A DNA stretch of 64,000 nucleotides from a virus (IMGVR_UViG_3300005274_000001:32001-96000), one strand, 5' to 3'. Shown: positions 32,228 through 58,933, numbered from the stretch's first letter. Made by a program: numbers and translations. Notes: generated from the letters alone by a model not told the origin.

Positions 32228-32962
32228 TTAAAAGGTTTCTTTTATTTTTCCCTCCAAAAGAATGCCGTAAAACTTTCTTATTGTAGAGATTTGTGTAATT
32301 TCTATGTCCTCTTTTGGCCCGTAAAAATCAGATATTTTTTCAATAAAGGAAAATAGAAACATATTACTAGCAAAAGAAAATAAAAAGGAAAAGATGGGAA
32401 CAAAAACGAAGATTTCTTCTCTTTCATAGATTTCAATGATTTTTGTGATTTTTTTAAGTGTGTGTAAATGAATAGTGAATGGTATTGCTGTGTTGTATTT
32501 GTAGAGCGTGAATTTTTTTACTTCTTTTTCTCTTGCAAATTCAAAGTCTTCTTCTAGAGATTCTAAAATGTGAAGTTTCGTATACTCATGAAAGTTTTCA
32601 AAGAAATTTTTCAGTTTGTCTTTTAAATCTTCTTTTCTTTCTACAATAGAAATAAGTGTATCTTGTTCTGGGCTGCCGCTATAGAAAGCTTTGCTGATAT
32701 ATCTCTTATCGTTTTCGTATCTTTCGCTATAGTCATTTCCTTCATATAGTGCGACAAAATTCACTTTTAACTCTAGCCACAAAATATGATCGTTTATAAA
32801 GTTTATTAGCGTTTCTTCTATAGATTTGAGAAAACTTTTTTGTGGACAAAAAATTTCTTGTGTTAAGTTTGGTTTCACTTGATTGATTTTTTCTATTGCT
32901 TCTTCAAAATTTTTGCTTTCTTTGACTATGTTTATTAGAGCAACTTTTTCTACCTCTTTCAT
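32228..32962 (-). CDS. EVF-tail family protein
   Basis: Ends KETF; extended -10 TGcTATCAT upstream. Confidence 0.75.
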   Translation of the reverse strand: MKEVEKVALINIVKESKNFEEAIEKINQVKPNLTQEIFCPQKSFLKSIEETLINFINDHILWLELKVNFVALYEGNDYSERYENDKRYISKAFYSGSPEQDTLISIVERKEDLKDKLKNFFENFHEYTKLHILESLEEDFEFAREKEVKKFTLYKYNTAIPFTIHLHTLKKITKIIEIYEREEIFVFVPIFSFLFSFASNMFLFSFIEKISDFYGPKEDIEITQISTIRKFYGILLEGKIKETF

Positions 32963-33053
32963 GTTTTGAACATGATAGCACAAAACGCAATGAAGAGATA
33001 AGGAAAGCGTTTACTTGTTTTTGCACAAAATAAAAAACACAAAACATTCTTTC

Positions 33054-33533
33054 TTAATCGTAAACAATCAAAATAGCATTCTTTGATATTCCTAGTTTAA
33101 TAGCTTCATCATATGTGTCAACTACAATATCTGCTGATCTTTTGTATCTAGCATTCATTGTGTCATAAATGACACCTTCAAAGATTCCTAAATCTGAGAT
33201 GATTTTAGCTTTTTTGCCGCAAAGATATTTTCTACGATTTTTGTCAAAGAACAAATCTTGTGAGATTGCTATGATTGTTTCTTTAACTTTCTTTATTGGG
33301 CCACAAGAAGCAATATCTGGAGTACTATCGGTTTGATTTTTTGTTAAGTTATAGAAAGATAATCTTTCTAGCTTATAAGCTTTTACGCCAAAATCTTCTT
33401 TGCTTTTTTCTCTAATGTAAAAATTTTTTGCGATTTCATATTTCTTAGAGATAAGATTTTCTTTCATGTTTTGATAATCATTAATCATTATTGGACCCAA
33501 AAGCAAGAAACTTATAGCCAAAATCCTTTTCAT
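33054..33533 (-). CDS. 3D-domain (double-psi barrel, lytic-transglycosylase-like) protein with N-terminal signal/TM
   Basis: YN..QTDSTPDIASCG, IAISQDL, YDTMNARY..DI motifs. Confidence 0.7.
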   Translation of the reverse strand: MKRILAISFLLLGPIMINDYQNMKENLISKKYEIAKNFYIREKSKEDFGVKAYKLERLSFYNLTKNQTDSTPDIASCGPIKKVKETIIAISQDLFFDKNRRKYLCGKKAKIISDLGIFEGVIYDTMNARYKRSADIVVDTYDEAIKLGISKNAILIVYD

Positions 33534-33652
33534 CGGCACCTCCCCAAGGCACTATAGCAGGACAAGGCTTTTTTGGCAAGCCTTAAAAGGCTATAAGTGT
33601 ATCGCCTCTTCCATAGAAAGAAAGCAAAGAAAGCGTTTACTTATAAAGGCAT

Positions 33653-33690
33653 AAGAAGAAAACCTCCCCAAAAGGGGAGGTTTTCTTCTT
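33653..33690. terminator. Bidirectional terminator
   Basis: Perfect 17-bp inverted repeat AAGAAGAAAACCTCCCC-AAAA-GGGGAGGTTTTCTTCTT. Confidence 0.85.
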
Positions 33691-33702
33691 CAAGTATGTA
33701 GA

Positions 33703-34074
33703 TTAACCTACATACCTGAACACGGGCACTACGCTAGGGTGGGGGACTACCTCAATGATGAGCCTTTTGTTGTCCCAAGAACTGATGATTAGCCCATCAT
33801 CAAGGTAGAGATAAATGTTCTTATCTCCCCTTGGGACGACAAAGAAGTTAGCCCACCTTCCCTGAAACTCTTCAGGGACACCCCTAAGGCTAGGGCCAAT
33901 ATACTCCACCAGGATGCGCCTAATGCTAGAAACCTCCACAAAGGCCCTAACGCTAAGCGCATCCTCGCCTTTCTTGACATTCCCGCCAATCTTCACATCA
34001 GCAGGAATGCCCCACTTCCCAAGGTACCCCTTGACCTCTTCCAGAATCTTGTCCCTAAGCTCTTTCTCCACCAT
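33703..34074 (-). CDS. Early hypothetical protein (relatively GC-rich)
   Basis: 123 aa; promoter, 5' hairpin, AGGAGG SD. Confidence 0.8.
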   Translation of the reverse strand: MVEKELRDKILEEVKGYLGKWGIPADVKIGGNVKKGEDALSVRAFVEVSSIRRILVEYIGPSLRGVPEEFQGRWANFFVVPRGDKNIYLYLDDGLIISSWDNKRLIIEVVPHPSVVPVFRYVG

Positions 34075-34282
34075 CTCACACCTCCTCCTAAAGCATACTT
34101 CCGTATGCTTTAGGCACCTTTAGCATAGCACACCCCTCGCCTTGTGTCAAGCCCCCCCCTGCCCTAAGCGTTTCCGTGATGTTTTCGTGCGCTTGAGCGA
34201 GAAAGGCGAGTTGTAAACGCTTTGTGGGAAATAAACGCTGAAACGCTTAATCAGAAAATGGGGTATTTTATTTTTTGGGGGA

Positions 34283-34882
34283 TTAAAAATTTTCTTCTAT
34301 CTCAAAAAGAACGCAAATATAGCTTCTAAAAACGACAATACTTTCTTTTTTATTTGATAGCGAAACTTGGGAGATTAAAGGAAAGTATATTTCTCTTTCT
34401 TTGGCGAAATCTTCTTCTTTTGCCGGATAAAAGAAAATGTTTTTGCTTTCTATTGTTTGATAGGATCTCGTTATTGGGCTGTAAAATTTTTGTTGTACTG
34501 TTTTTATCTTCATGAGAAAAGGCTTTGTTGATTTAATGAGGTATCTCTTTTCTTCATCGTTAACATAGTTTGTATACATGCTTTCAAAAAATACATCTAA
34601 AAATTCTTCTAAGCCGCTTTCTAAATCTTCTTTACTTGGAAACATATCAAAAGTTTTTCTTAGGTAAAAGAAAGGCTTATTTACAGCTTCTAAATGAGAG
34701 AAAGAGTTATCTAATCTTTTTTCCTTTAGCTGAAAAAGCATAGATTTTCTAAAAAGCTTTGGTTTTCTAAGAAAAAGAAGCTCTTTGTTTTGTTCAAGGA
34801 TTTTTTCAACTTCTTCGTAAATCATTGAACTAACCTCTTCTAAATCAAAACTTCTATCTAACAAGACAAGCTCCGTCTGCAT
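34283..34882 (-). CDS. EVF-tail family protein
   Basis: 199 aa, ends EENF; leaderless. Confidence 0.8.
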   Translation of the reverse strand: MQTELVLLDRSFDLEEVSSMIYEEVEKILEQNKELLFLRKPKLFRKSMLFQLKEKRLDNSFSHLEAVNKPFFYLRKTFDMFPSKEDLESGLEEFLDVFFESMYTNYVNDEEKRYLIKSTKPFLMKIKTVQQKFYSPITRSYQTIESKNIFFYPAKEEDFAKEREIYFPLISQVSLSNKKESIVVFRSYICVLFEIEENF

Positions 34883-34988
34883 ACCTTAAGATTAGCAAAG
34901 CCTTACAGCGGTGTCAAGAGTTAAAAGATGAAGATGGCGTTTATTTGTTTTTTCGCAAAAAAGTGAAAAAATCAAAAACAAACACTTC

Positions 34989-35408
34989 TTAATACACATC
35001 AACTAACCTAACATACTCAACTTCACCAAAGAATATATAAACCAAATCTTTTTTGTTGTGAAAACCTAGTATTGGTTTGTGAACCAAAACATTAGAATCT
35101 ACATCCTTTCTCAAATAGTGCACTATTAAGTCTTTATAACTAGCGATTGACATCATATAAGTAACTGTTTGTATTCTAAGACTTTCAAAGTCTTCTTCGC
35201 TTAACATTGTTTCCAAAACAAACATTTTATCTTCAGACCAACGAGTTAACGCATGTTTATAAATGCCAAACTCTTTCTTGTAGGCAGAAAAGGCGTTTTC
35301 AAAGTTTTTATAGTAGCGGATTTTGTAAGTGTAACTCCGCAAAGCATATTTTGGATCATAAAAGGGCTGTACAAAGAAATACTTCTTTTTCTTAATGTCC
35401 AAAATCAC
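34989..35408 (-). CDS. EVF-tail-like protein
   Basis: 139 aa, ends VDVY; GGAGGTG SD. Confidence 0.75.
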   Translation of the reverse strand: MILDIKKKKYFFVQPFYDPKYALRSYTYKIRYYKNFENAFSAYKKEFGIYKHALTRWSEDKMFVLETMLSEEDFESLRIQTVTYMMSIASYKDLIVHYLRKDVDSNVLVHKPILGFHNKKDLVYIFFGEVEYVRLVDVY

Positions 35409-36382: not shown

Positions 36383-36922
36383 TCAGAAAGAAATGTTCTT
36401 TTTCACAATATAAGCGTCTGCATATACTCTAAAAACATTATCTACCTTATCTTTAAACTCTACCTCAATTTTGAAAATCTTTATTGGCACCAAAAGATAA
36501 GCTGGTACTCTTTGTAAAACTTGCAAATCATCACATGCTCTAAAAAGTTCTTTAAAAGACCTAAAGAAAAACGCATGATTCTCTGCCTTTTTTAAATTTT
36601 TCAAGTCTTCTAAGAAGTCATAAACTTCTCTATTTATAAAAGCTTTTCTCACTACGCTAACAGGATAAAGTAGCCAATATATGTCTTTCAAATCCACATT
36701 TTCTACCGAAACAATTTTAAGGTCTTTTAGTTTTAATATTTTTGGTCCTAATCCTTTGTTCAACCTTTGAAAATCTTTTTCTATTTGAGAAAAATCGTCT
36801 TTGAAAACAATATTGTTATGGATAACTGAAAACAATTTTTCTGACATCTTTTGAATATGATCTTTTTCATTAAAGACTGCATATCGTTTATGTAAAACAT
36901 CTAAGAATGGTGGTACTTCCAT
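36383..36922 (-). CDS. EVF-tail family protein
   Basis: 179 aa, N-term PPF, ends NISF. Confidence 0.75.
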   Translation of the reverse strand: MEVPPFLDVLHKRYAVFNEKDHIQKMSEKLFSVIHNNIVFKDDFSQIEKDFQRLNKGLGPKILKLKDLKIVSVENVDLKDIYWLLYPVSVVRKAFINREVYDFLEDLKNLKKAENHAFFFRSFKELFRACDDLQVLQRVPAYLLVPIKIFKIEVEFKDKVDNVFRVYADAYIVKKNISF

Positions 36923-37035: not shown

Positions 37036-37707
37036 TCAGAAAATTTCTTTAAAAACCACATAAAAGGTGAGGCCAAATATAGTTTTCCTTCTTATAAAGA
37101 CATTCTCATCTTGTTTGATTTTTGTTAATGAGTAAAACATAGGAATTAATACACAAGTAGAAGCAACCTCTGGTTTTTTAACAGAAATAAACAAGTCTTT
37201 TATAAGATTTTCTCTTGTAGTTGGTCTTAAGTAAAACCATTCATTAAAAATTCGATTTGTTTTAGGGGGTTTGGGGCCTTTTTCAACAATAAAGATTTTC
37301 GTTTTGTCAAAAAGTTTTAACTCCACTTCAAAAGATTTTATTTCACCAAGATACTTTTTGAATAAATCCACCTCCGCTTCTATGGTGTGAAAAAGATTTG
37401 ATTTTACATTACGATGTATCATTTCAAATTCTACATTTTTTGAAACCCTATTAAGTTCAAAATATTCGCTATGAACTCTTTTCTTTAATGTTTCTCTAAA
37501 ACCAACTTTACTCTGCATTATATATTCCCAAAAACAGAAACTTTGACGATCAAATAAAAAGGGTACATATTGTCCTTTTTTAAGTTTTTTAATGAAGCCA
37601 ACGCTTTCTAAATAAAAATCCTTTAGTTGGTGGGGATTGGAGAAAAAGTGATTGACTTTTTTAAACTGCTTCTCTTCTTCAATCGTTCTTTTTTGACGCA
37701 CCCTCAT
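37036..37707 (-). CDS. EVF-tail family protein
   Basis: Ends KEIF; leaderless start 37707. Confidence 0.8.
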   Translation of the reverse strand: MRVRQKRTIEEEKQFKKVNHFFSNPHQLKDFYLESVGFIKKLKKGQYVPFLFDRQSFCFWEYIMQSKVGFRETLKKRVHSEYFELNRVSKNVEFEMIHRNVKSNLFHTIEAEVDLFKKYLGEIKSFEVELKLFDKTKIFIVEKGPKPPKTNRIFNEWFYLRPTTRENLIKDLFISVKKPEVASTCVLIPMFYSLTKIKQDENVFIRRKTIFGLTFYVVFKEIF

Positions 37708-37816
37708 AGCCAAAGCATAGCAAAGAAGGCCCCTTCAGTCAAGGTAAGTTCACCGAGGATAAAATATTAGGATAGCGTTTACTTGTTTTTAACGAATTAA
37801 AAAATCAAGAGCTTCA

Positions 37817-38359
37817 TTAGAAAACCTCGTTAAGCCTATAAAAGCAAATCTTTCCTAGCATTGCAGAAACCTCTATTTTTAGAGAGGTTTCTTCAGGTTT
37901 TGTATTTTCAAAGGTTATATAGTAATCGGGAATAAAGATTTGACCTTTTTTAAAATCAAAGATGTTGTCAATAGCGTAAAAGTATTTCTTGCTTACAACT
38001 TTAACTCTTATTTTGTCGCTATAAAGTCCACTTATTCCATTTGATGGAATAGCATAATCTGCTATGTAAAAAGCTATATCGTTTTTAAAAGTTTTTATTT
38101 TTTTTATCGCAAATTTGTCAAGAAGCGATTCAAAAGGTGCAGATCTATAGTGATAAAGATTTTTAACAAATAAAGTTCCCAGATCAAGAATTGTGTCTAT
38201 ATCATATTTGTCTTCCTCAAAAATCATCATTGGAAACCTTTTCTTTTCATTAAAGTCAAACTTATTTCCATTTTGAGTAATATAGTATCTAAACACTACA
38301 AGCGCCTCGTCAATGAAGATTTTCTCAAAAACTTCTGTATCTATCACTTTTCTAATCAT
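37817..38359 (-). CDS. EVF-tail family protein
   Basis: 180 aa, ends NEVF. Confidence 0.8.
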   Translation of the reverse strand: MIRKVIDTEVFEKIFIDEALVVFRYYITQNGNKFDFNEKKRFPMMIFEEDKYDIDTILDLGTLFVKNLYHYRSAPFESLLDKFAIKKIKTFKNDIAFYIADYAIPSNGISGLYSDKIRVKVVSKKYFYAIDNIFDFKKGQIFIPDYYITFENTKPEETSLKIEVSAMLGKICFYRLNEVF

Positions 38360-38889
38360 CAGAACACCTCCTCTATTTCGTATTCATACAAAGTTCCGAT
38401 TAGTCCTTCTATCATTCCAGAAAGTTCATCTGTATCTTTCAAAAGTATTTTCCTTTGCGCAGCAAATAAAGTATCGCCTTCTATTACTTCTTTTAAATTT
38501 TTTATCTCTTCTATTTGAGAAGGCCTAAGATAAACAATAGACATTTTGTAGTCATTAATAACATGTTCGCTATAATCATCAATAAAAACCGAGAAATACT
38601 TTTTTTCAATGGCTTTGCTACAAATAACCTTTGTGCTGAAAGTTTTCAACAAATCTCTCTCAAGAGATAAACACGACAAGTTGTTGTAAAAATACTCAAT
38701 TGATCTGTAAAAAGTTTTGTTGTCTACGAAATCACAAATAATGAAAGATTTGTACAAAGAAAACTCTCCTACTATTTCGTCAGCAAAGCGATTGTTTTTG
38801 CTGGGATAATAGTCTAGTTCTAGATATGCTTTATATCTCTTCAAGATTTTAAAGGACTTTGACTCCAAGAAACCTTCTATTGCTTTCAT
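38359..38889 (-). CDS. EVF-tail family protein (paralog of 39601-40122)
   Basis: Ends EEVF; YLRPSQIEEIK..DTLF..SGMIEGLIGTLY. Confidence 0.8.
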   Translation of the reverse strand: MKAIEGFLESKSFKILKRYKAYLELDYYPSKNNRFADEIVGEFSLYKSFIICDFVDNKTFYRSIEYFYNNLSCLSLERDLLKTFSTKVICSKAIEKKYFSVFIDDYSEHVINDYKMSIVYLRPSQIEEIKNLKEVIEGDTLFAAQRKILLKDTDELSGMIEGLIGTLYEYEIEEVF

Positions 38890-38933
38890 TCTAACCCCCC
38901 CCTTTCTTAAAAACATAATCATATCAATGAAAC

Positions 38934-39440
38934 TTAAAAAATCTCTTCACGATACTTTACTCTATATATTCTTCCAACAAAACATTTTTCAATGAGTTCC
39001 ACCCTTTTAAACCATCTGCCTTCTCTAAAGGACTCAACAACAGAATCAACAATAAGCAAGTAAACTTCAGGAAAAAGTATTTCTAAATCTTTTATTTTCT
39101 CTCCTATGTGATTTACTTTTGAAATCTTCATTCTATCGTAAACATAAGGTGTGAGAATTCCTCTTTTGTTAGAAATAACCTTTTCATTACCACTACAAGC
39201 TATAACATAGCAATCATACTCAGGGTCAAGAACTTGGTAAAAATAAATGTATTTGCGTCCTATCTTGTCAGTTGTTAGCTTAGATATCTTTTTCAAGTAT
39301 TCCTCTTTGTTCAAAATCTTCACTTCTCTATATACGCCTCTAGAGAAAAAGTAGTTGGCATTTAAGATTTCTAAAAAAGGCAAAAAGTTTTTGAGGCTTT
39401 TGTAATCTTCTAGTTCTTTAATAATGCTTTCCCCCACCAT
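38934..39440 (-). CDS. EVF-tail family protein (paralog of 40777-41283)
   Basis: 168 aa; FLPFLEI...GRIYRVKY, ends EEIF. Confidence 0.8.
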   Translation of the reverse strand: MVGESIIKELEDYKSLKNFLPFLEILNANYFFSRGVYREVKILNKEEYLKKISKLTTDKIGRKYIYFYQVLDPEYDCYVIACSGNEKVISNKRGILTPYVYDRMKISKVNHIGEKIKDLEILFPEVYLLIVDSVVESFREGRWFKRVELIEKCFVGRIYRVKYREEIF

Positions 39441-39600: not shown

Positions 39601-40122
39601 TCAAAACACCTCATTAACCTTATATGTATACAAAGTGCCCACTAACCCTTCTATTATTCCTGAATATTCATCAACATCATCTAGAAATACTTTTCTTTTT
39701 GCAACAAATAAAGTATCAGCATCTAGCAAATCTTTCACATCTTTTATTTCTGTTATTTGCTGTGGCCTAAGATAAGCAACACGTACCCATAAACTTTCTT
39801 CAAGAGTTGGATAAATGCTAAATACGATTGAATAATACTCTTTGTTTATTTTTTCCTCACCCAAAAATCCTACATCAAATTCCTTTGAACCACCTCTTTT
39901 AACAGGAACAGATAAGAATCTATTGTAAAAATGTTCAATGCGCTTATAAAAAACTTGGTATTTCTCAGAATAATCACAAGTAATAAGTGTTTTATAGGAT
40001 TCAAAACTAGAAACTATTTCTTTAGCAAAAATATTTCTTTCGCTAGGATGATAAGTAACTTCCATATAAGCCTTCTTTTTGCTAAGAATTTCAAATGGGG
40101 CTGCTTTTAGAAATCTTTCCAT
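39601..40122 (-). CDS. EVF-tail family protein
   Basis: 173 aa, ends NEVF. Confidence 0.8.
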   Translation of the reverse strand: MERFLKAAPFEILSKKKAYMEVTYHPSERNIFAKEIVSSFESYKTLITCDYSEKYQVFYKRIEHFYNRFLSVPVKRGGSKEFDVGFLGEEKINKEYYSIVFSIYPTLEESLWVRVAYLRPQQITEIKDVKDLLDADTLFVAKRKVFLDDVDEYSGIIEGLVGTLYTYKVNEVF

Positions 40123-40137: not shown

Positions 40138-40644
40138 TCAAAACTTGTAATCGTAGGTAATAAGACATCCTAAACCTACAATATTGTGTATCTTTTTTAG
40201 TTTACTGAAACCTGAGTTATTCAAGAAAAACTCATCAAGCTCAACAATTGGAAAAAACATGAAATCTGTAAAATAGTCTTCCAGGTTAGGTTTTATAAAT
40301 GAGAAAATGTTTCGCTCATTTATCTCTTTGAAAATAACTTTTCCATTTTCATCATTAGTTACATAGAGTATTTTTTCTTCTTCGTAAAATTTAACATTTT
40401 TTATTTTTCTGTTGGCATCTTCGTGCAAAGAAGATTTTATTGCACTTTCTACATATATTTCAAAGGAGCTTTTTCCTACATCTGTTTCATATATGTGAGA
40501 GATTGTTGAAAAAACTTCATCTCCGAAATAATAGTTTTTGATTATTACGATAGAAAAATAGCTCGGTCTAATAAGATTACTAATGTTTGCAATCTTTTCT
40601 TTTGTTAGACTAACATAGTCTTTTTTTACACTTACCTCTTTCAT
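40138..40644 (-). CDS. EVF-tail family protein
   Basis: 168 aa, ends DYKF. Confidence 0.75.
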   Translation of the reverse strand: MKEVSVKKDYVSLTKEKIANISNLIRPSYFSIVIIKNYYFGDEVFSTISHIYETDVGKSSFEIYVESAIKSSLHEDANRKIKNVKFYEEEKILYVTNDENGKVIFKEINERNIFSFIKPNLEDYFTDFMFFPIVELDEFFLNNSGFSKLKKIHNIVGLGCLITYDYKF

Positions 40645-45078: not shown

Positions 45079-45100
45079 ATCTCATTTTTGCAAAACGAAA

Positions 45101-45136: not shown

Positions 45137-45147
45137 CTAAATATTGC

Positions 45148-47515: not shown

Positions 47516-47599
47516 GGCTCACCTCCTAGGGCTAGGATAAAGCTCAAGGGGGGGCTAGTCAAGCCTCCCTTTCTAAAAAAGTTTTAAAGATTTAGATTT

Positions 47600-48115: not shown

Positions 48116-48259
48116 GCCGCTCTCTCCTTTTTGGATTGCGTTTATTTATCCCCCCTTGAAACTTTCAGACATTCTCAGAAACTTGCGTTTTTCAAGTAAA
48201 CGCTTAATCATAGTTTGCGAAAAAATAAAAAATCATTAGAAGGAGAATTTCTTATAATT

Positions 48260-48502: not shown

Positions 48503-48558
48503 ACCTATCGCCTCCGATGCTCATGTTAGCAGGTAGGTATCCTTTTGTCAAGCTCCCC

Positions 48559-49035: not shown

Positions 49036-49129
49036 GTCTATAAGCTAGCATGAGAGTGAATCGTTGTCAAGCGTTGGTACACTATTATAAGTCTGGAAAG
49101 CAGAGATACTATTCAAAACACAGCACAAG

Positions 49130-49636: not shown

Positions 49637-49676
49637 GTCTTTAGTGTATGCTAGCTGCACTTTGTTGTCAAGTGTG

Positions 49677-50222: not shown

Positions 50223-50784
50223 CTTTGCACCTCTCAAAAACAAGTGTTACTCTAAACAGATTTTTTGAGTACAATGTACCTTTTCTGGTTTTTTGTTTGT
50301 GTTTGTAGGAAAAATAAGATATAACTTCAAACTCATTGGCTTCAAAGCGAAATGCTTTAGGCAATCCTTGTACAATGTATTTGTTTATGTTTTCACTAAG
50401 AATATAAAGTGAAAATTCCTCTGTTGGAACTTTCATTTGCAGCAGTTCGTGTTCGTCTACGTATTCCGATGTTGAAGGACATGTCATTTCAAAGTAAAAG
50501 AACTGGTCTTTAACAGACCTTTTGTTTCCTGAGGAATAATCTTTGATGAAGTCTTCAAACATGTCATAAATTTTTCCTCTTTTCTCTAAGACAAACAAAT
50601 TTCTTTTTTCGTCAAAATCAATAATATTTTTCCCTAGCTCTATGTAGCTATCAATAGCGCCAAGTTTCACATACTCGTTTTTGATTATTAAATAAAGATT
50701 TGAAAACAGCTCAATTTTTGCGTTTGCAAGAGTGAAAGGAAAAAAGTTAGAAATTTCAATCGCATGATTTTTTTTCTTCTTCAT
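50212..50784 (-). CDS. EVF-tail family protein
   Basis: FFPFTL N-term, ends KDVF; GGAGGTG SD. Confidence 0.8.
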   Translation of the reverse strand: MKKKKNHAIEISNFFPFTLANAKIELFSNLYLIIKNEYVKLGAIDSYIELGKNIIDFDEKRNLFVLEKRGKIYDMFEDFIKDYSSGNKRSVKDQFFYFEMTCPSTSEYVDEHELLQMKVPTEEFSLYILSENINKYIVQGLPKAFRFEANEFEVISYFSYKHKQKTRKGTLYSKNLFRVTLVFERCKDVF

Positions 50785-50825
50785 GCTCACCTCCTCAGAA
50801 GAGATCATCTCAGAAGAGATCATCT

Positions 50826-51344
50826 CTAGAATGGATCATCTCTAACTATACGAATTGTCATTTCTAAATTCGTTTTTAGATCAGTTTCGTAATTACTATC
50901 TACTGAGTCATAAGTTAGGTAAAACGACCAAGAAATCTCATGAAAGGTAGGAACTTCCTTTATTGTTTTCTCAACAATTCTTTTCAAGACCAACTTAATG
51001 TTTAAAAAGTTCAAATCCTCAATTTTGTAGAAAACTGGTTCAAATTGATAAAAATCTCTATCTGGTCGATTTGATAAAGGATCCTTAGTATAAAAGTAGA
51101 CAGAGTAGAAAGAGTAAGCATTAAAACTAAATCTCGCTAGTTCTTCTTTCTGCTTCAAAAGTTTCAAGTGATTAACCTCTTTAGTTATCCTCTTATGAAG
51201 CAAATTGAAAGCATTGATAACTTCAGAGAGATTTGAAGTGTATAGATAGTAGTTTTCATGAGATGATTCGCTGTCTTTGCACCTAGCAAATCTATCATAA
51301 GTAAGCTTTGCGCTATGTACTTTTGCGTAGCTCGTCAACTTCAT
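50826..51344 (-). CDS. EVF-tail family protein
   Basis: 172 aa, ends DDPF. Confidence 0.8.
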   Translation of the reverse strand: MKLTSYAKVHSAKLTYDRFARCKDSESSHENYYLYTSNLSEVINAFNLLHKRITKEVNHLKLLKQKEELARFSFNAYSFYSVYFYTKDPLSNRPDRDFYQFEPVFYKIEDLNFLNIKLVLKRIVEKTIKEVPTFHEISWSFYLTYDSVDSNYETDLKTNLEMTIRIVRDDPF

Positions 51345-51509
51345 TGCTCACCTCCTCCTATAGTCTAGGCGCTAAAAGGCGTTTTGTCAAGGGGGGGCTA
51401 TATTTTGTACTAGGAAAGCGTAGCAAGGCTTTTATCTTTAATGCAAATCTTGTTTAAGCATTTTAGGTGGTACACTATTACCTAAGTCTGGAGGGACAAA
51501 CAAACAACG

Positions 51510-52025
51510 CTAGAAAACCTCATTACCCTTCTTGTATTCAAACTTCACTACAAGAAGTTTTTCTATGCTTTCAACTTCTTTGTTTGCTAGTAGTCTTTGT
51601 AGAAGCGTAGGAAACTTGATGATAGCTGCATTAAAGCGAAAATAGTAAGTAATGCTCTCCATTCCTTCTCTTAGAGCTTTTATTGTGATAGGTTTTCCAA
51701 ATAGGTTTATCATTGAAGCGAATTCGTTTTCATTAAAGTTTGCAATTATGTCGTTTTCTTTCTCAATGTAAATCGGCAGAGAAACTAGTTTGTAAGATGA
51801 GAACATTAAATAGGAGAACTCAAAAAGTGATTCTATTTTTACTGATTTGGGCTTTGCAAAAAAATCTTTCTTAAAATCTTGCAAATAGTTTTTAACTTCT
51901 TTACAAAAATCGTAAAAATCAAAGAATTCTTCATAAGAAGATTTATGCACAATTTTCTTACCTCTTTCTTCTTTGTAGATAATTGATATCGAACTTAGAG
52001 AGTAGGGAAGAAAAGCTTTAAGCAT
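51510..52025 (-). CDS. EVF-tail family protein
   Basis: FLPYSL N-term, ends NEVF. Confidence 0.8.
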   Translation of the reverse strand: MLKAFLPYSLSSISIIYKEERGKKIVHKSSYEEFFDFYDFCKEVKNYLQDFKKDFFAKPKSVKIESLFEFSYLMFSSYKLVSLPIYIEKENDIIANFNENEFASMINLFGKPITIKALREGMESITYYFRFNAAIIKFPTLLQRLLANKEVESIEKLLVVKFEYKKGNEVF

Positions 52026-52159
52026 GTTCCTCTCCTCTGCATTACCTTTCTTACTTACTTTAAAGTAACCCAGGGCGTGGTACACTATTACCTAAGTCTG
52101 GAAGATGACTACTAACAACAAAAGATAAACAACTTCTTTTGTTGTAAACACTCACGTCC

Positions 52160-52657
52160 TCAAAACAAGGTATTAAAATCAAATGAAGCTTCTATGCGCA
52201 AATCTTGTGAAAGTGTCGTTTCATTGATTTTTAACTCGACAAAAGATACAAAGAAAACATTGAGTGTTTTTTCTTCTTTAATCGCATATTTATAGCGTTT
52301 ATTTATCTCACGCTGCATTAGGCTAAAAATCTTTTGTTCACTAAATTCTTCTAGACTAAGAAATCTTTTTCTTAAGCGTTTTCTTAGCTCTTTGTAAGGC
52401 ATATCAAAATAGTAATCATTTGCTAATGAGGATACAATTGTAAAGCGTCCTAATTCGAAAAAAGGAGATTTGAAAAATCTTTTTAGAATCTCAAAGTTTC
52501 TTGAAAAATCAGTAAACGCTTTATCAAAGAATTCGCTTCTTTCTTCTTCAAAAAACTCAGTCTTCCTAGTTGAAAGAAGGCTGTCGTTAATCAAATATTC
52601 TTTTAAAAACCTCAGACTTTTAGGTTTTTGTAGTGAAAAAAGCTCTTCGATGTTCAT
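52160..52657 (-). CDS. EVF-tail family protein (paralog of 53710-54216)
   Basis: 165 aa, ends NTLF; KRF..S..F..G.F, EEFSE.K shared. Confidence 0.8.
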   Translation of the reverse strand: MNIEELFSLQKPKSLRFLKEYLINDSLLSTRKTEFFEEERSEFFDKAFTDFSRNFEILKRFFKSPFFELGRFTIVSSLANDYYFDMPYKELRKRLRKRFLSLEEFSEQKIFSLMQREINKRYKYAIKEEKTLNVFFVSFVELKINETTLSQDLRIEASFDFNTLF

Positions 52658-52665
52658 GTTTTCAC

Positions 52666-53136
52666 CTAAAAGACTTCTTTTCTTTCTAAATTAGCTTCTA
52701 CTTCTAGAACAACTTTGTCAAGGTTTCTTGTTAGATAATTTAGCTCTATAAAAATTGTTATTGCAGAAACTTCTTTTTCGTTCTTAAGCGCTTTGTTATA
52801 AATTTGACTAATGTTTTCTTCAATAACTCTTAAAACTGTTTTAGGATTAACAAAGGAAGTATTTTTAACACCTATGTCTTCGAATCTAGGTGTTCCAGCT
52901 TTTGTATTTGTAATCAACGCATAGTTAATCTTTAAAATGTCTTGTACGACATCACCTTCAGAATTTTTTACTTGCTTATAATATTTTGAAACAAAACTTC
53001 TAAGGTGCTTATAAAAGTCGTTAGCCTTTTCTTCTTTCAATATTTTTTTAAATGAAAAATTGTTTTCTTCACCTTTTGAGTTTTTAAAGTATTCGAAGTT
53101 AAACTTCGCTTTTGTGAATTCAAAAGGCGCTAGCAT
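52666..53136 (-). CDS. EVF-tail family protein
   Basis: 156 aa, MLAPFEF start, ends KEVF; leaderless. Confidence 0.8.
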   Translation of the reverse strand: MLAPFEFTKAKFNFEYFKNSKGEENNFSFKKILKEEKANDFYKHLRSFVSKYYKQVKNSEGDVVQDILKINYALITNTKAGTPRFEDIGVKNTSFVNPKTVLRVIEENISQIYNKALKNEKEVSAITIFIELNYLTRNLDKVVLEVEANLERKEVF

Positions 53137-53200
53137 AGCTTGATGCTAGCACGACAGGCTAAGCGTGTCAACTTGGCGCACTATTATCTGGGTCTGGAAA

Positions 53201-53698
53201 CTATAAGATGTCGTAATAGTAGACAACCTCTAGTGATGCGTAGTAATTCCTATGAGGTGTGTAGTAATTCCTATGAGGATGGCCTTTAGTGAGCATTAAA
53301 GAAACGAGAATATAGTCTTTTTTACCAACACCTTTTAATTTTAAAAACTTTGATAATGTTTTATCTCTCTCTTTGATGATTGTATTAAACACCTTTTTAG
53401 GATTTATATCGTATCCCAAAATTTTAATTTTTTCTGCAAAGTCTTCTTGTTTAATATTATTATTAATTGTCAAATAGAAAGGTTCCTCTTCTTTGCTTTC
53501 AAAACTTTTTTCGATGTCGATTGTTTGTTTTATAAACTTTAACATTAATTGATTTGCTCTTTTTTCTAACTCTAACGCTTCAGTATTTTTGTTGAAAGTA
53601 AATTTGTATTTATTCTCTAAAGCTTTTAAGAGTTCTTTTGATGCACCCAAAGGCTCTTGCAAGTAGAAAATTTCGATTTCTCTGAGTTTCAGTTTCAT
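53201..53698 (-). CDS. EVF-tail-like protein
   Basis: Ends YDIL. Confidence 0.75.
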   Translation of the reverse strand: MKLKLREIEIFYLQEPLGASKELLKALENKYKFTFNKNTEALELEKRANQLMLKFIKQTIDIEKSFESKEEEPFYLTINNNIKQEDFAEKIKILGYDINPKKVFNTIIKERDKTLSKFLKLKGVGKKDYILVSLMLTKGHPHRNYYTPHRNYYASLEVVYYYDIL

Positions 53699-53709
53699 CG
53701 CTTCCCCCT

Positions 53710-54216
53710 TCAAAAAACGCCATGTAGAGAGTAGTGCATTTTTAAAAATAGCTTTTTTACAACCAAAGATTTCTTTATCTTTAATGAAACGAAGAATATA
53801 GATTCTACTGATAGATTCTCTTGGTTTATTAAGGCTTTTCTATATTTTTTGTAAAAAGCTTCTTCTACTAAACGCATAAATTTCTCTTCACTAAATTCTT
53901 CAATTCTATAAACTCTTTCAGGAAATCTAGTTAGCAAGCTTTTTTCTTCTCTATAAATATCAAAGTATTCTTCAGAAATATTACATAAAGAAAAAACAAC
54001 AAAATAACCTTTGTAAAAATATTTTGACGACACAAATCTTTTGACAATGTTTAAGTGTTTCAAAAATATGTCGTTAAAATTTTTAATTTCTTCTTCTTGG
54101 GAATTGTAATAATATTTACGCTTTCTAGCTTTAGTAAACACCTGTTTGACGAAGTGTTCAGTTGACACTTCTACGAAAAATATTTCGTGTGTTTTAATTA
54201 AGTCTTCAATGCGCAT
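53710..54216 (-). CDS. EVF-tail family protein
   Basis: 168 aa, ends HGVF. Confidence 0.8.
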   Translation of the reverse strand: MRIEDLIKTHEIFFVEVSTEHFVKQVFTKARKRKYYYNSQEEEIKNFNDIFLKHLNIVKRFVSSKYFYKGYFVVFSLCNISEEYFDIYREEKSLLTRFPERVYRIEEFSEEKFMRLVEEAFYKKYRKALINQENLSVESIFFVSLKIKKSLVVKKLFLKMHYSLHGVF

Positions 54217-54222: not shown

Positions 54223-54741
54223 TCAAAAACTAGGAAGAACAATGTCATTTATGTCTATAGTGTAAGGAGGTCTTAAAGAGAAAATGTGTTCTATTTCTAC
54301 TAGACAAACTTTTTCGACTTTTTTTATTTCAAAAACTATTCTTGACATTATGGAGATTGGGTAATTGTTTAAGCTTTTAATATTTCTGCTCAGTTCGTTT
54401 AGTGTTTTTTCTGTGTTTTCAATCATTTCGCAAGCTTTTTCTCTGAGAAAAAATGACATATTCTTTTTCTTCTCTGACAGAGTTTCATCATTTTTTAAGC
54501 TTTTTATATCTTTGAAATAAAGCTTTGTCCTTCCTAAAGCATAGCCTCTATAGTTAACAAACATATAAATAGAGATTGTTTTTACATCTTGTTTTAGTGA
54601 TTTTAATACAAAACTGTCAAGCGCTTTAATCAGTTTATCTTTTTCGTTTGCAGAAAAGACGATATTTGAAGTATCTGTGTAGCTAAAGAAAGATTTGTAT
54701 ATTCCCTTTTTCGTAGTTAAATGAAGCTTTTCTAGCCTCAT
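54223..54741 (-). CDS. EVF-tail-like protein
   Basis: Ends LPSF. Confidence 0.75.
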   Translation of the reverse strand: MRLEKLHLTTKKGIYKSFFSYTDTSNIVFSANEKDKLIKALDSFVLKSLKQDVKTISIYMFVNYRGYALGRTKLYFKDIKSLKNDETLSEKKKNMSFFLREKACEMIENTEKTLNELSRNIKSLNNYPISIMSRIVFEIKKVEKVCLVEIEHIFSLRPPYTIDINDIVLPSF

Positions 54742-54870
54742 CTCTTCTCCCCCAGAAGACACCATAGAACACAAACCTTAGGCTGTCAAGCGTTGGTACA
54801 CTATTATAAGTCTGGAAGGTGTAGAAGAATGACGCTTGAAGATTGAAGGTCTATATGCTAGTATATAGCT

Positions 54871-55407
54871 ATGCAGACGCAAGGAGGTTGGCTTTTTGAT
54901 AAATCTGTTTTCTTAAGAAGAGCCTTTACACGTTATTTGTATGTTGACAGTAATAATGTGGCTCACAATTACCAAGAAGAAATTGAAAACTTAGAAGGAT
55001 TAGAAAATATTGTTCAATTGGCAAAAGAAAAATTAAAAGAATACGAAAAAGAATTAAGAGAAGCGATTATGTTTGGATTAAAAATTGAAGAAAATTTTCA
55101 ATTAATTGCTATAGCAAACTTTTATAAAGCATCAGTAAGGCATCAGTATTATAAAAAATTAACTCTTAACGAAGCGATGTCTTTTTCTTTTAGAGATGCA
55201 ATCGATGAGGCTATATCTCACTTCTTGAGATTTTGTGAAATTGAAGATTTATCGTTGATTTTAAGTTTAAGTTTTCCTTTTTTATCAGCATATAAATCTC
55301 TATGCAGTTCTGGAAATTACAATTGCTATGCGTTAATTCCTGACCCTCCGCAACTCTTTCACATTATCGCTGAATTTTTGGTTGATAAAAATTTACTTGT
55401 TTTTTAG
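54871..55407 (+). CDS. EVF-tail-like protein in inverted orientation
   Basis: 178 aa, ends LLVF; TTGAAG-17-TAGTAT-6nt-ATG leaderless promoter. Confidence 0.75.
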   Translation: MQTQGGWLFDKSVFLRRAFTRYLYVDSNNVAHNYQEEIENLEGLENIVQLAKEKLKEYEKELREAIMFGLKIEENFQLIAIANFYKASVRHQYYKKLTLNEAMSFSFRDAIDEAISHFLRFCEIEDLSLILSLSFPFLSAYKSLCSSGNYNCYALIPDPPQLFHIIAEFLVDKNLLVF

Positions 55408-56039
55408 AATGTTTCTTTTATCTCAGCAAACAAGGAGTAGTTGAACAAATTTGGCTTGCTCAAAATTTTTATCATTTCCTTAGTATGTTTGTCAAGTGTT
55501 TTAGCGTTTATCTTTTTTGCACCTACCGAATAAAGATTTGATGAAGTTTCTTCTTCATGAAAATCTAACCAAAAATCAAACTTAAATTGAAAGGAAATTT
55601 TTGACATTAGACCAAACTTTTTAAGAAAATAAAGCGTTGATCTTTCTAATTCTCTTTTGAGGGACAAAGAGGGTATTTTAGAAAGTTTATATTCCTTTTT
55701 CCAATTAAAACCTTTAGCACCTTCATAGAAAGCTAAGGCGTTGAGTTCTAAGACTTCATAAACAATAACCCTTCTTAGCGTGCTTCCACTTTGATTGTTT
55801 ATTAGTTGTTGTATATTATTTAGCCCACTAGTGAACAATTTAACTCTATCTTTGGCGAGATGAAAAAAGTTTTTCACTTCTTCAAACACATCATAATCGT
55901 TTGAAAAGTAGTGAATCAATTTTACTTCATTAAGCTCATTAGTTTCCTTTTTACTTTTTGTCTTATCAAAGTAGCGTATATAGACTGAGCCTCTTGTAAA
56001 GCTTAGTATGTCAAAGGCGCTAAAGGACACTTTAAGCAC
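55404..56039 (-). CDS. EVF-tail family protein
   Basis: 211 aa, ends KETF. Confidence 0.8.
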   Translation of the reverse strand: MLKVSFSAFDILSFTRGSVYIRYFDKTKSKKETNELNEVKLIHYFSNDYDVFEEVKNFFHLAKDRVKLFTSGLNNIQQLINNQSGSTLRRVIVYEVLELNALAFYEGAKGFNWKKEYKLSKIPSLSLKRELERSTLYFLKKFGLMSKISFQFKFDFWLDFHEEETSSNLYSVGAKKINAKTLDKHTKEMIKILSKPNLFNYSLFAEIKETF

Positions 56040-56152: not shown

Positions 56153-56689
56153 TTATAAGTCTGGAAGGTCTAGTAGAGGTTGCCTAAAGTCTACAGCTTT
56201 GTACTCTAGTTTGAAGGTAGAACTATGCAGAATTTTGTATTTCGACTTTTCGTGAACTAATTGGCTAATAACGAACTCGAATCTAGTTAAAGGAATTCCT
56301 GGTCTTAATCTGAAGAATTCAATTAATGATTCTATCGAATCCTCGATGAAAAAATAAAACGCATTTTTTATTCTCTTCTCACTTGGTGTTATTAGTCTTA
56401 TAAATTCGTGAGGTTTAGACATCTCTAAATCCAACTTGTATTCTTTATTTTTTCTTAACTCATAAGCGTCTATACTTTTTGAGAGTCTAAATTCAAAGTC
56501 TTTGTTAATTATAGCTTTTGCTAATACCTTTTCTATCAATCTCTCTAAAGAATTTTTACTTTTTGTTGGCATTTTAGTTAAATAGTGAAACCTTACTTCT
56601 TTAGAATCTTTCTCATTGCAGTACTCATAGTTTACTTCTATCTGCCTAAGCAGAAAAAGCTGCTTGTTCACTCTAATGAGTTCTCTCAT
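56153..56689 (-). CDS. EVF-family-like protein; C-terminus reads into the 26-bp repeat
   Basis: 178 aa, ends LPDL encoded by the repeat. Confidence 0.75.
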   Translation of the reverse strand: MRELIRVNKQLFLLRQIEVNYEYCNEKDSKEVRFHYLTKMPTKSKNSLERLIEKVLAKAIINKDFEFRLSKSIDAYELRKNKEYKLDLEMSKPHEFIRLITPSEKRIKNAFYFFIEDSIESLIEFFRLRPGIPLTRFEFVISQLVHEKSKYKILHSSTFKLEYKAVDFRQPLLDLPDL

Positions 56690-56698: not shown

Positions 56699-57199
56699 CT
56701 ACATCGTTTCGTTTTTGAAATATGTTACAAACCAAATAACATATTCGAAGTTTGCAACAATTCTCTGTGTAAGGCAAATTTTCAAAACTTTGTTTTTATA
56801 TATACAATTCGCAAATTGATAGTTTGTAATTATTTCTTCTATTCTTTCAAAGAGAATTTTTGATAGATCTATTTTGCTAGCGTCTTCAATGAATTCTCTA
56901 TTTGAGCCTAAAAGATTCGTCAAATCTTTTATTCTTTTTTTCTTTTTTCTTTGCGCTTCAATTTCAATGCGATTAGTAATTAGGACATCTAAATTTTCTT
57001 TTTTAATTTCTTTGAATGTTTTAGCAAGAAACTTCTTTACAGCTTCAAAGTTCTCTGAAGAAAAGTGTTTTTGTTGGTTGAACATTTCGCTTGTAGAGCC
57101 ATTAAAATCAATTCTTCTATAAATGCTAACTTTATACTGTTGAAGCGAAAATTTTTGATGACCAAAATCCTTGTTGTAAAAAAGAAGTTCTTTTTTCAT
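56699..57199 (-). CDS. EVF-tail-like protein
   Basis: Ends NETM; GAGGTG SD. Confidence 0.75.
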   Translation of the reverse strand: MKKELLFYNKDFGHQKFSLQQYKVSIYRRIDFNGSTSEMFNQQKHFSSENFEAVKKFLAKTFKEIKKENLDVLITNRIEIEAQRKKKKRIKDLTNLLGSNREFIEDASKIDLSKILFERIEEIITNYQFANCIYKNKVLKICLTQRIVANFEYVIWFVTYFKNETM

Positions 57200-57207
57200 C
57201 CTACACC

Positions 57208-57630
57208 TCATGTGTAATCTTTGAACATCTCCTCTTCTAACGCTCTTTTAAACTCCTCTTTAGTGAGCGTTGTAATCTTTCCTTCTTCAAAAAAGTGAAT
57301 GCGTTTAAAGTCTAGCTCATTTAATATACTTGCGCAATACAAACAGGGCCTAGTGTTTTTCAGAAGGCTTTTTCTGTAGCCAAAAACAAAAATATCACTA
57401 GGATAGAAACGCTCCTTTTTAGCTTTGTGAAAAAAGTCTAACTCAGCGTGAAGCGCTGCAAAATTAGGATAATCGTATTTAACTTGTTTGCTAACGATGT
57501 ATTTATTTTCGCCAATTAAAATTTCCTTTTTACTAATACCAACACAATACATCTTTACTTTGCCTTTTGGTGTATTCGTTTCTCTTTCCAATAAAATATT
57601 CATTAACCTAAGTAAACGCTCAACCCTCAT
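57208..57630 (-). CDS. Zn-dependent cytidine/nucleotide deaminase-fold protein
   Basis: LHAE and RPCLYC motifs; leaderless start 57630. Confidence 0.8.
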   Translation of the reverse strand: MRVERLLRLMNILLERETNTPKGKVKMYCVGISKKEILIGENKYIVSKQVKYDYPNFAALHAELDFFHKAKKERFYPSDIFVFGYRKSLLKNTRPCLYCASILNELDFKRIHFFEEGKITTLTKEEFKRALEEEMFKDYT

Positions 57631-57637
57631 GTAAGGC

Positions 57638-57680
57638 ATAATAGCATGAGCTTGACAGGCTGTCAATCGCTTGCTATGAT
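57638..57680. promoter_or_regulatory. Overlapping palindromic divergent promoters
   Basis: TTGACAG-G-CTGTCAA palindrome; + TTGACA-17-TATGAT and - TTGACA-17-TATTAT. Confidence 0.85.
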
Positions 57681-57700
57681 GAGGAATGCAATGAGGGGAG

Positions 57701-58402
57701 GTGTCTTTCGTGCTAAAGGTTTGCGCATTGGACCTAGGCTCAAGAAGGCAGGTTGCAGTAAAAGGAGTGATTGATGACGATATTCTGAGAATTAAGGACT
57801 ACAAATATACTTACATTGAAGAGGAAAACATAAAAGAGAAAATTAAAAAGCTAAATGAGTTTTTAGAGAAGAATGTTTTAAGCGAGGAGTTTGATTTTGT
57901 GATTTTAGAAAAAAAATTTAAGAGCACAAAAAAGACAAAATTAAAGGTATCGCATTCAGAATACAAAGCTTTTGTAATGCTAAATGAACACGCAAAAAAT
58001 AAACTTTTAAGCGAAGGCATTAATCTGTTGACTGTAGTGTCAAGCAACATTGAAGCTTTTTTTGTAAACTCAAAAAGAAGCAACTACTTTGTTCCTGGTT
58101 GGAAGCAAGTTCTTACTGGTATTAATAAACCTTCAGATAAGGACATTGAAGAAGCATTAAAAACTTTGTTAAAAGAAGGAAAAATTGTATACGAAGCAAA
58201 CACAAGTGAACTGACGCAAAATAAAAAAAGGTTTTATGTAGACTTTAATGACGCTGTAGGAATGCTTTATGCGTATATTCTAAGGCCAGAAATTTTTGTT
58301 TTAGAGGAGGCACCAAAAGAAGATGATGACAACAAAAATGACTTCTACGATGAGATTACAAAAGAGCTGCTAGAAAAATTTCTTGGCCCAATAGTGTCTT
58401 GA
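57701..58402 (+). CDS. RuvC-like (RNase H fold) Holliday junction resolvase/nuclease
   Basis: ALDLGS, VILEK, PGWK, DFNDAVG catalytic pattern. Confidence 0.65.
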   Translation: MSFVLKVCALDLGSRRQVAVKGVIDDDILRIKDYKYTYIEEENIKEKIKKLNEFLEKNVLSEEFDFVILEKKFKSTKKTKLKVSHSEYKAFVMLNEHAKNKLLSEGINLLTVVSSNIEAFFVNSKRSNYFVPGWKQVLTGINKPSDKDIEEALKTLLKEGKIVYEANTSELTQNKKRFYVDFNDAVGMLYAYILRPEIFVLEEAPKEDDDNKNDFYDEITKELLEKFLGPIVS

Positions 58403-58933
58403 GTGAAATAATACTCTTTTTGTGTTTAATGAGATTAAGAATTTTTTTGTGTTTCTTTTTATCTCATTGCTAATAACGAAAGCGTTTATTTCTTTGTAGT
58501 ACTTATAAGCGAACCTAGCGTCCTCATTAAAGTCTGCAACAAAAAGAATTAAGTCTTCTAGGTAATAAGAATTCACGATGTAGTTTTTTATTGTCTTGTA
58601 ATCTTCCTTTGTCTTTATGTAATAGAAGTCAAAAACTTCTTCAACTTCAATGAATTTTTTATACGCCTTATACAAAGGCAAAGGATTTTGCAGGAAGTAA
58701 AAAAACAAATATCTAGAAAAAGTTTCTAAATAGTTAGTACTAAAACGATATCTTTCAAACTCTGAAATCCTTTTTATAGACTTGTATTGTTTAACAAAAG
58801 CGAACTCTCTTAGTATCTTTTTTCTTATAGGACTTATGTCAAAGATAATCCTGTCAATAAAGTAAACGCTTCGAGCGTTTCTCTTAAAAGCTTCGCTTGC
58901 TCTTAGAATTGGAAACGATAGATTAGTGTTCAC
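58370..58933 (-). CDS. Hypothetical protein, possibly EVF-family
   Basis: 187 aa, ends KKFF; extended -10 TGcTATAGT. Confidence 0.65.
   Translation of the reverse strand: MNTNLSFPILRASEAFKRNARSVYFIDRIIFDISPIRKKILREFAFVKQYKSIKRISEFERYRFSTNYLETFSRYLFFYFLQNPLPLYKAYKKFIEVEEVFDFYYIKTKEDYKTIKNYIVNSYYLEDLILFVADFNEDARFAYKYYKEINAFVISNEIKRNTKKFLISLNTKRVLFHSRHYWAKKFF

Follow-up and report, generated by a model that had tools for sequence, protein, structure and literature searches.

A tandem array of phenylalanine-tailed genes in a phiYS40-like Thermus phage and its possible descent from a single fold

What makes about 30 small phage proteins with very divergent sequences end in nearly the same three residues? 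The question is raised by positions 32228-58933 of a 64,000-nucleotide stretch of viral DNA (IMGVR_UViG_3300005274_000001:32001-96000; hereafter, the window), where an array of short genes codes for proteins with a C-terminal [E/D]-x-F tail. An earlier note on this DNA had proposed that the array is a diversified repertoire of early proteins, in which variable, unrelated bodies bind different host targets and the common tail docks on one hub. Here, we analyze the frequency and conservation of the tail, the predicted fold of the proteins that carry it, and the roles that it may have.

The window represents bases 32001-96000 of a virus record of 157,225 bp with 33% G+C. Over its full length, the segment 41000-46000 is 82-84% identical in nucleotide sequence to the Thermus phages TMA and phiYS40, and the landmarks of a large myophage are present, i.e., a SU10-type major capsid protein (1642-3054), three proteins of ~1,500 amino acids (aa) and a MoxR-like AAA+ ATPase (43208-44251). 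Judged by these sequence characters, the source of the window is a phiYS40/TMA-like Thermus myophage. The array occupies ~27 kb, roughly 17% of the genome, and is found in every known phiYS40-like phage. For comparison, we used TMA, phiYS40 and four metagenomic relatives found via protein-identity look-ups (an 82.9-kb ENA contig, a 19-kb NCBI contig and two Logan contigs). Scans of viral and metagenome contigs anchored on the ATPase yielded nothing beyond phiYS40 itself and an identical contig of 4.7 kb.

The C-terminal tail and the level of its conservation

In a greedy, non-overlapping set of open reading frames (ORFs) of at least 90 aa, a terminal Phe was found in 27/41 ORFs of the array, compared with 8/116 in the rest of the genome (Fisher p 2e-13). 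The complete [E/D]-x-F ending was present in 18/41 array ORFs and in 2/116 ORFs elsewhere (Fisher p 1.4e-10). These 18 tails, i.e., ETF (two), ENF, EIF (two), EVF (ten), DLF, DVF and DPF, match exactly those reported in the earlier note. The terminal residues of the array are also strongly enriched with respect to the array's own composition (F 8.5%; [ED]xF 1.65% per position), with binomial p values of ~1e-19 for F and ~1e-21 for [ED]xF. The result was replicated in phiYS40, in which 33/49 ORFs of the homologous region end in Phe vs 9/104 elsewhere (p 1e-13), whereas phiLo, an unrelated Thermus myophage of the same host used as negative control, shows the baseline value of 8/161. The tail pattern of the array is real and statistically overwhelming.

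An alignment of 36 members anchored at the C-terminus gave information contents of 2.2 bits at position -1, 1.25 at -2 and 1.3 at -3. The final residue is Phe in 27 members, Leu in two, and Ile, Tyr, Met and Val in one each; Val is present at -2 in 16 members, and Glu (17) or Asp (6) at -3 in 23/36. Further inside the chain, a Gly at -12 and the hydrophobic character of positions -13 and -14 give weaker signals. The N-terminal P-[F/Y] motif that the earlier note had attributed to many members stood only in part, being present in 13/41 array ORFs compared with 19/116 elsewhere (p 0.04).

The earlier note had regarded absence of the tail from orthologs as one result that would speak against its proposal; on the contrary, the tails are kept across all six relatives, even where the bodies are only 40-60% identical. 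For instance, the product of 49677-50243 ends in EEVF and its orthologs, at 48-50% identity, in KDVF, while the product of 38934-39440 ends in EEIF and its ortholog, at 39% identity, in KEVF. Over 23 families, the mean pairwise identity was 0.95 at the last residue, 0.80 at -3 and 0.70 for all columns.

A recurrent ending could also arise as a by-product at the nucleic acid level, if a conserved gene junction consisting of a GAGGTG Shine-Dalgarno sequence, a T-rich spacer and a stop codon overlapping the next ATG had been copied with each duplication. Three overlapping junctions (38359, 46467 and 47003) do have the form GAG GTG TTC/ATT TRA TG, with the stop overlapping the next start, and at these three gene pairs GAGGTG doubles as the Shine-Dalgarno sequence of the downstream gene. 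Moreover, GAG represents 31/65 (48%) of the Glu codons at -3 vs 26% in the gene bodies, in a set whose members are not independent. Nevertheless, the 18 [E/D]xF tails are encoded by 18 different codon and stop combinations, many of them with GAA GTT or GAA ATT and hence no Shine-Dalgarno sequence, the Asp variants (GAT) are kept too, and the next gene is at least 100 nt away for 10/15 Glu tails. Phe, the most conserved residue, lies in the spacer and switches freely between TTT and TTC, so the Shine-Dalgarno role of GAGGTG cannot explain it. The varied codons and the uncoupled tailed genes indicate that the constraint acts on the protein, as the earlier note had argued, and the codon diversity largely refutes the by-product explanation, to which we give very little credence. 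An RNA-level component may still account for part of the preference for Glu-Val, since at the three overlapping pairs the Shine-Dalgarno duty of these codons probably adds to it.

A predicted fold across sequence-unrelated families

The bodies of the array proteins were described in the earlier note as highly divergent apart from local paralog pairs, and our searches agree with this description. BLASTP, iterated hidden Markov models (HMMs) and hhalign linked only five small groups, i.e., 38359/39601, 38934/40777, 46467/47003/47600, 52160/53710 and 49677/50212. In these five groups, adjacent members are detectably paralogous, as is characteristic of a tandem multigene family. No array member had a match in Pfam, and in PHROGs each array family forms its own group restricted to phiYS40 and TMA.

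AlphaFold2 (AF2) models were made for two families without detectable sequence similarity to each other, one from each half of the array. Model 1, from the family of 47003-47515 (22 sequences), was obtained with a pLDDT of 84.8 and a pTM of 0.81; its elements are H5-8, E10-25, E33-43, H49-69, E75-83, E87-96, H103-124, E129-145 and E150-166, followed by the KEVF coil. Model 2, from the family of 38934-39440, was of moderate quality (pLDDT 68.7, pTM 0.67), with elements H13-19, E23-33, E40-43, H45-56, E64-71, E76-82, H109-122, E125-141 and E147-163, followed by REEIF. The order of the elements is identical in both models and their spacing is similar. In agreement with the earlier note, a beta-strand precedes the tail; this strand has ~17 residues in both models and belongs to the sheet, and the tail starts 1-3 residues after it. 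Over the final ten-residue block, pLDDT still averages 82 in model 1 and 71 in model 2, unlike what a free peptide on a flexible linker would show.

As the viral structure models in BFVD include those of phiYS40 and TMA, the comparison of both AF2 models with BFVD using Foldseek was the key test of the fold. The 13/13 matches of model 1 at E<=1e-4 come from phiYS40 (A0MN..), TMA (F9VH..) or two sister accession series, and eleven matches outside its own family have 5-12% identity and 130-185 aa. Likewise, 12/13 best matches of model 2 belong to the accession series of phiYS40, TMA or the sister phages; among them, model 2 retrieves the family of model 1 (A0MND2, E 2.9e-3; F9VHW7) as well as proteins from the half of the array opposite to its own (A0MNE0, A0MND8). 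The matches mapped to genes are YS40_120 and orthologs of five array genes. Model 1 matches A0MND4 (inferred YS40_116; E 1.8e-6) for 48559-49035, F9VHX1 (inferred TMA_114; E 3.7e-6) for 49130-49660 and, weakly, F9VHU8 (inferred TMA_091) for 34989-35408; model 2 matches F9VHV1 (inferred TMA_094; E 1.7e-4) for 36383-36922; and both models match A0MNE0 (inferred YS40_122) for 50826-51344.

In the families examined, which individually cover about half of the total, one predicted fold was found, and the array proteins appear, according to these models, to share this fold across sequence-unrelated families. The proposal of unrelated bodies carrying a common tag is not upheld, since the two AF2 models and their reciprocal Foldseek matches indicate one shared fold. 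The earlier note had itself considered that the terminal Phe might be only a buried residue of one shared fold, and the shared-fold half of this idea is borne out by AF2 and Foldseek. The fold tolerates the loss or change of the tail, as illustrated by the family of 49130 (FPYV, E 3.7e-6), the 46467 clade (EVI) and two families that are truncated or extended.

Foldseek against the PDB gave no convincing match (best E 0.018). A search of the ESM Atlas for shapes similar to model 1 gave nothing interpretable, its best match being an unnamed viral protein cluster (TM 0.51). In the same resource, the neighbours of 52666-53136 were uninformative, its own Atlas model being poor (pLDDT 0.44). The predicted fold seems to be restricted to the phiYS40-like lineage, without a convincing known match.

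Candidate roles of the tail

We consider it somewhat probable that the array is one lineage-specific, tandemly amplified and fast-diverging superfamily, in which the tail would be intrinsic to the domain, as a clasp or as a surface/interface element. A typical member of ~170 aa is predicted to be composed of a short helix, a beta-hairpin, a helix, a beta-hairpin, a helix and a long beta-hairpin with ~17-residue strands, with the chain ending 3-5 residues past the last strand as [E/D]-(V/I/L)-F-COOH. The array would have been built by segmental duplications (A-B / A'-B' at 38.4-41.3 kb and a triplet at 46.5-48.1 kb) and also shaped by genes gained and lost between phages. The tail of the founder would have been retained under purifying selection at the protein level, nearly all the rest having drifted beyond sequence recognition. 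The array genes would be driven, probably early, by host sigma-A-type promoters, and their products would form a repertoire of host-interaction binders, for take-over or anti-defence, on one scaffold; the diversified repertoire of the earlier note is supported. As an integral part of the domain, the tail would lock the long C-terminal hairpin or make a conserved surface patch. Given a shared fold, the tail is most simply explained as inherited by descent and need not be an added address label; additionally, the last strand leads straight into it without any flexible linker, which makes a free linker-borne address peptide less likely.

The gene content of the array varies between related genomes. 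The genes 37036-37713 and 47600-48115 are unique with respect to TMA and phiYS40, while phiYS40 has six extra Phe-tailed members without a counterpart in the window, which end in NFPF, LSVF, EDLF, DELF, FPYF and REVF.

Several points weigh against the single-superfamily reading. Cross-family HMM matches exceed those of reversed-sequence decoys ~two-fold at E<0.05, which is too weak to claim homology, and hhalign probabilities between families are below 10% except for two pairs; sequence profiles thus do not establish a common ancestry of most families. With TM-scores of 0.27-0.62, the Foldseek matches to other families reach low to moderate values, and orphan proteins may be poorly modelled in BFVD. 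For this reason, our claim refers to the same element order and local structure, not to a tight superposition; "same fold" means element order and 3Di similarity in the predicted models of ~8 mapped families plus several unmapped ones, not of all 30. The correspondence between UniProt accessions and genes was inferred from accession order and checked against annotated lengths; expression timing and any host target are putative. Finally, Phe is kept very specifically (27/36), together with the acidic residue at -3 and nothing else, a pattern that would suit a recognised peptide better than an ordinary position of a hydrophobic core.

This last point leads to the alternative that the tail docks in trans, i.e., that variable surfaces bind different targets while [E/D]-x-F-COOH fits into a pocket that all members use on the same hub. 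Such a hub could belong to the host, as a protease, a chaperone, a clamp or a pocket of the type found in partners of the single-stranded DNA-binding protein (SSB); it could also belong to the phage, for example as the MIDAS of a vWA protein, in which the Glu would complete the metal coordination. The tail is the sole element conserved across families that cannot be aligned, it is under selection at the protein level, and its acidic residue and terminal Phe carboxylate resemble the SSB tail (...D-I-P-F), PDZ class III ligands and the EEY/F ligands of CAP-Gly domains. On the other hand, the tail is placed 1-3 residues past a strand of the sheet without a disordered linker, whereas classical docking tails are borne on flexible linkers, and some members of the fold lack the tail, replace the Phe by Ile or extend past it.

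One candidate hub lies in the middle of the array itself, where a gene pair coding for the MoxR-like ATPase and a vWA protein is kept in every relative examined. The vWA protein (41532-43190, minus strand), which is embedded in the array without being a member, contains a zincin-like HExxH domain (HEILH), a Q/N-rich linker and a vWA domain (DUF2201_N/DUF2201) with an intact MIDAS motif, DTSGS, and matches phrog_1314. Its low-complexity linker of ~60 residues (residues about 220-275) varies in length between relatives. The ATPase (43208-44251, minus strand; phrog_1297) has relatives in at least 132 records from other phage groups, including N4-like phages and cyanophages, which are not known to carry such an array. 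This wide distribution makes the MoxR/vWA module a weaker candidate for a dedicated hub, as it is not array-specific. The complex predicted for the vWA/peptidase protein with Mg and the family of 47003-47515 had a score of 0.28, below the mark of 0.32, which speaks neither for nor against binding. The phage genome has no match to the Pfam SSB family, and our searches identified no common hub or receptor for the tail. Docking in trans is, in our estimation, a tentative alternative that is rather unlikely; the more specific idea that the tail acts as a trans-acting address, with ~30 surface-diversified copies of one new fold forming an adaptor library that plugs into one hub pocket, either in a host protease, chaperone or DNA-metabolism protein or in the phage capsid or vWA machine, seems to us slightly more doubtful still.

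The expression of the array bears on another role, that of a packaging or turnover tag, in which the tail would serve as a procapsid address for ejection into the next host or as a C-terminal degron that clears early proteins. Exact or near-exact promoters of the host type (TTGAC[AT]-N16-18-TAnnnT, often with TG) number 19 in the 27 kb of the array and 32 in the other 130 kb of the genome, so that their density is three-fold higher in the array; most of those in the array lie between genes, are oriented with the coding strand and precede an array ORF by 1-48 nt. On the minus strand of 32000-59200, they present a perfect TTGACA and often an extended -10 element. Several -10 elements are located 7 nt before the ATG (e.g., 34889-34917, 49042-49070 and 53143-53171), which implies leaderless mRNAs. 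Seven further host-type promoters were observed at 29.4-32.1 kb, before very small ORFs. Based on these promoters, we infer early transcription by the host RNA polymerase, and the array genes are probably expressed early. In three compost runs labelled as metatranscriptomic, related contigs are even across the array and probably derive from DNA, being uninformative on expression.

Short terminal tags on diverse cargo are established for T4 internal proteins and encapsulins, and the ORF that comes immediately downstream of the gene for the major capsid protein (1055-1570, minus strand; 171 aa) ends in KIEVF, its phiYS40 ortholog, 75% identical, ending in KIDVF. This ORF could be an outlying array member or a clue to a capsid connection. 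Nevertheless, no sequence link was found between it and any array family, and the array genes stand behind -35/-10 promoters of the host type, as expected for early and not for late genes. We regard a packaging or turnover tag as improbable, and keep the single superfamily with a domain-intrinsic tail as the preferred reading.

Array members, their surroundings and related systems

All the array genes described below are located on the minus strand, with one exception. The array starts with 32228-32983 (251 aa), whose tail, KETF, is retained as ETF in the TMA ortholog, and 34283-34882 (199 aa), whose EENF is retained as ENF in the phiYS40 ortholog. They are followed by 34989-35408 (139 aa, VDVY), with phiYS40 paralogs ending in EVF; by 36383-36922 (179 aa, NISF), with an N-terminal PPF; by 37036-37713 (225 aa, KEIF); and by 37817-38359 (180 aa, NEVF). 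The next five genes include the A-B / A'-B' duplication: 38359-38922 (187 aa, EEVF), whose GAG GTG TTC TGA end provides the Shine-Dalgarno sequence and the overlap for the next gene, is a paralog of 39601-40122 (173 aa, NEVF), and 38934-39440 (168 aa, EEIF), the protein of model 2, is a paralog of 40777-41283 (168 aa, QEVF). Between 39601-40122 and 40777-41283 lies 40138-40644 (168 aa, DYKF), whose orthologs end in YMF and YSF.

Beyond the vWA and ATPase genes, the tails of 44383-45078 (231 aa, EEVF) and 45148-45900 (250 aa, MSLF) are the same in 6/6 orthologs. After 46078-46470 (130 aa, RDLF), the triplet is formed by 46467-47003 (178 aa, EEVI, with EVI in 7/7 orthologs), 47003-47515 (170 aa, KEVF), the protein of model 1, and 47600-48115 (171 aa, EKFF), a distant paralog of the preceding two. 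The gene 48559-49035 (158 aa, SEVF) precedes 49130-49660 (176 aa), a member of the fold without the tail that ends in TFPYV. The pair 49677-50243 (188 aa) and 50212-50823 (203 aa, KDVF) is linked by hhalign at 77% probability, and is followed by 50826-51344 (172 aa, DDPF) and 51510-52085 (191 aa, NEVF). The genes 52160-52657 (165 aa, NTLF) and 53710-54216 (168 aa, HGVF) are paralogs; between them are 52666-53136 (156 aa, KEVF) and the variant member 53201-53713 (170 aa), which ends in YDIL and whose TMA and phiYS40 orthologs add the extension ...LPDxxNSVPS. The array continues with 54223-54774 (183 aa, LPSF) and with the only gene on the plus strand, 54871-55407 (178 aa, LLVF), an ORF of uncertain membership conserved in TMA and phiYS40. 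At its end are 55404-56039 (211 aa, KETF; EFF in orthologs), two variants, 56153-56689 (178 aa), without Phe tail, which ends in LPDL and whose orthologs continue into NSVPTPHPSV, and 56699-57211 (170 aa, NETM), and finally 58370-58933 (187 aa, KKFF).

An intergenic repeat, CCAGAC(N4-5)TAATAGTG, was observed downstream of several array genes (51469-51492, 52079-52102, 53179-53197 and the 3' end of 56153-56689). In TMA and phiYS40, two different families read through this CCAGAC repeat, giving rise to a second common C-terminal extension, ...LPDxxNSVP(T)S. Outside the window, the genome contains a 212-aa ORF ending in KVEFF (C1:119278-119916, minus strand; KVELF in phiYS40) and a 171-aa ORF ending in KKIF (C1:137767-138282; RKIF in phiYS40). 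An IS200/IS605-type transposase and TnpB are located inside the array in a metagenomic relative (L007 4608-6132) and in TMA (L001 34651-36673), showing that the array tolerates insertions. DNA of the region 44300-54200 is contained in compost metagenome runs, three of which may be its source, with 74% of the sampled words in one independent study, and three further compost runs have contigs 90-99% alike to it.

Two annotations call for correction or caution. The apparent "fused" members of 310-352 aa (P0058, P0105 and P0101) are artefacts in which a TGA stop was read as Trp (...EEVI-W-MKRK... and ...DYKF-W-EGG...), because the automatic choice of genetic code erred on low-GC DNA. The database label "glycosyltransferase", borne by YS40_112-114 and TMA_110/111 and inherited by phrog_17351 (46467-48115; L001 22769-23793 and L002 22532-24108), is unsupported by Pfam or by the predicted fold. 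No glycosyltransferase family of Pfam was matched at E<=0.1 by 46467-47003, 47003-47515 or 47600-48115, and the 170 aa of model 1 are arranged as three antiparallel hairpins plus two helices. There is no glycosyltransferase among the Foldseek or VIA PDB matches, although such lists do not exclude a GT-A/GT-B fold. An exhaustive HMMER search with the family profile over 1.84 billion representatives retrieved only the family itself.

Viral multigene families with one fold and little sequence similarity are represented by the Bcl-2-like immune-evasion proteins of poxviruses and the MGF families of African swine fever virus. The array resembles them in its clustered paralogs, rapid divergence with a retained (here, predicted) fold, variation of copy number among strains, and probable early expression, together with a presumed role in host interaction. 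In contrast, it belongs to a bacteriophage of a thermophile, its fold has no convincing PDB match, and its signature is a sharply conserved C-terminal tripeptide. The host-takeover clusters of large lytic phages, such as the host-takeover module of SPO1 and the terminal-repeat genes of Twort-like phages, are comparable in that small orphan genes, early or probably so, are densely packed behind strong promoters of the host type; they are not known to form one structural superfamily that shares a terminal motif.

Regarding the tail, a short terminal peptide common to different proteins of one phage or operon is also present in T4-type internal proteins and in encapsulin cargo. Those tags, however, are attached to truly different bodies, are N-terminal in T4 and serve late capsid assembly, whereas the array proteins share a predicted fold and their genes look early. 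The SSB tail, PDZ class III ligands, the EEVD of Hsp70/90 and the proteasomal HbYX motif have in common with the array tail an acidic residue, a hydrophobic one, a terminal aromatic and a free carboxylate; they differ in that they are carried on flexible linkers and bind defined receptor pockets, while the array tail abuts a beta-strand and no receptor was found for it. Mimicry of the SSB C-terminal tail, D-[IL]-P-F on a disordered acidic linker, is not supported by the sequences and models, as Pro is present at -2 only in the family of 50826 (DDPF) and the tail abuts a beta-strand in both models. An outer-membrane beta-signal is not supported either: inspection of the N-termini of Phe-tailed members, made without a signal-peptide predictor, revealed no obvious hydrophobic leader, and the modelled domain is alpha+beta, not a barrel. 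A full-text literature search, beyond whose reach were the TMA paper and those on the genome and transcription of phiYS40, found neither the family nor the motif, and the superfamily and its tail signature are undescribed in the searchable literature.

PHROGs and GenBank treat the array as some 30 unrelated orphan families. Viewed as a single superfamily, this dark matter would become a tractable system, offering a new fold from thermostable proteins and a set of naturally occurring surface variants of the same scaffold. The tail would be a simple experimental handle in the genetically tractable Thermus thermophilus, a host that possesses an Argonaute and CRISPR systems of several types. Should the tail instead be a docking tag, it would represent a new addressing principle for phage early proteins; as a trans-acting address, it would allow the modular delivery or recruitment of many host targets, a phage effector-addressing system not described so far.

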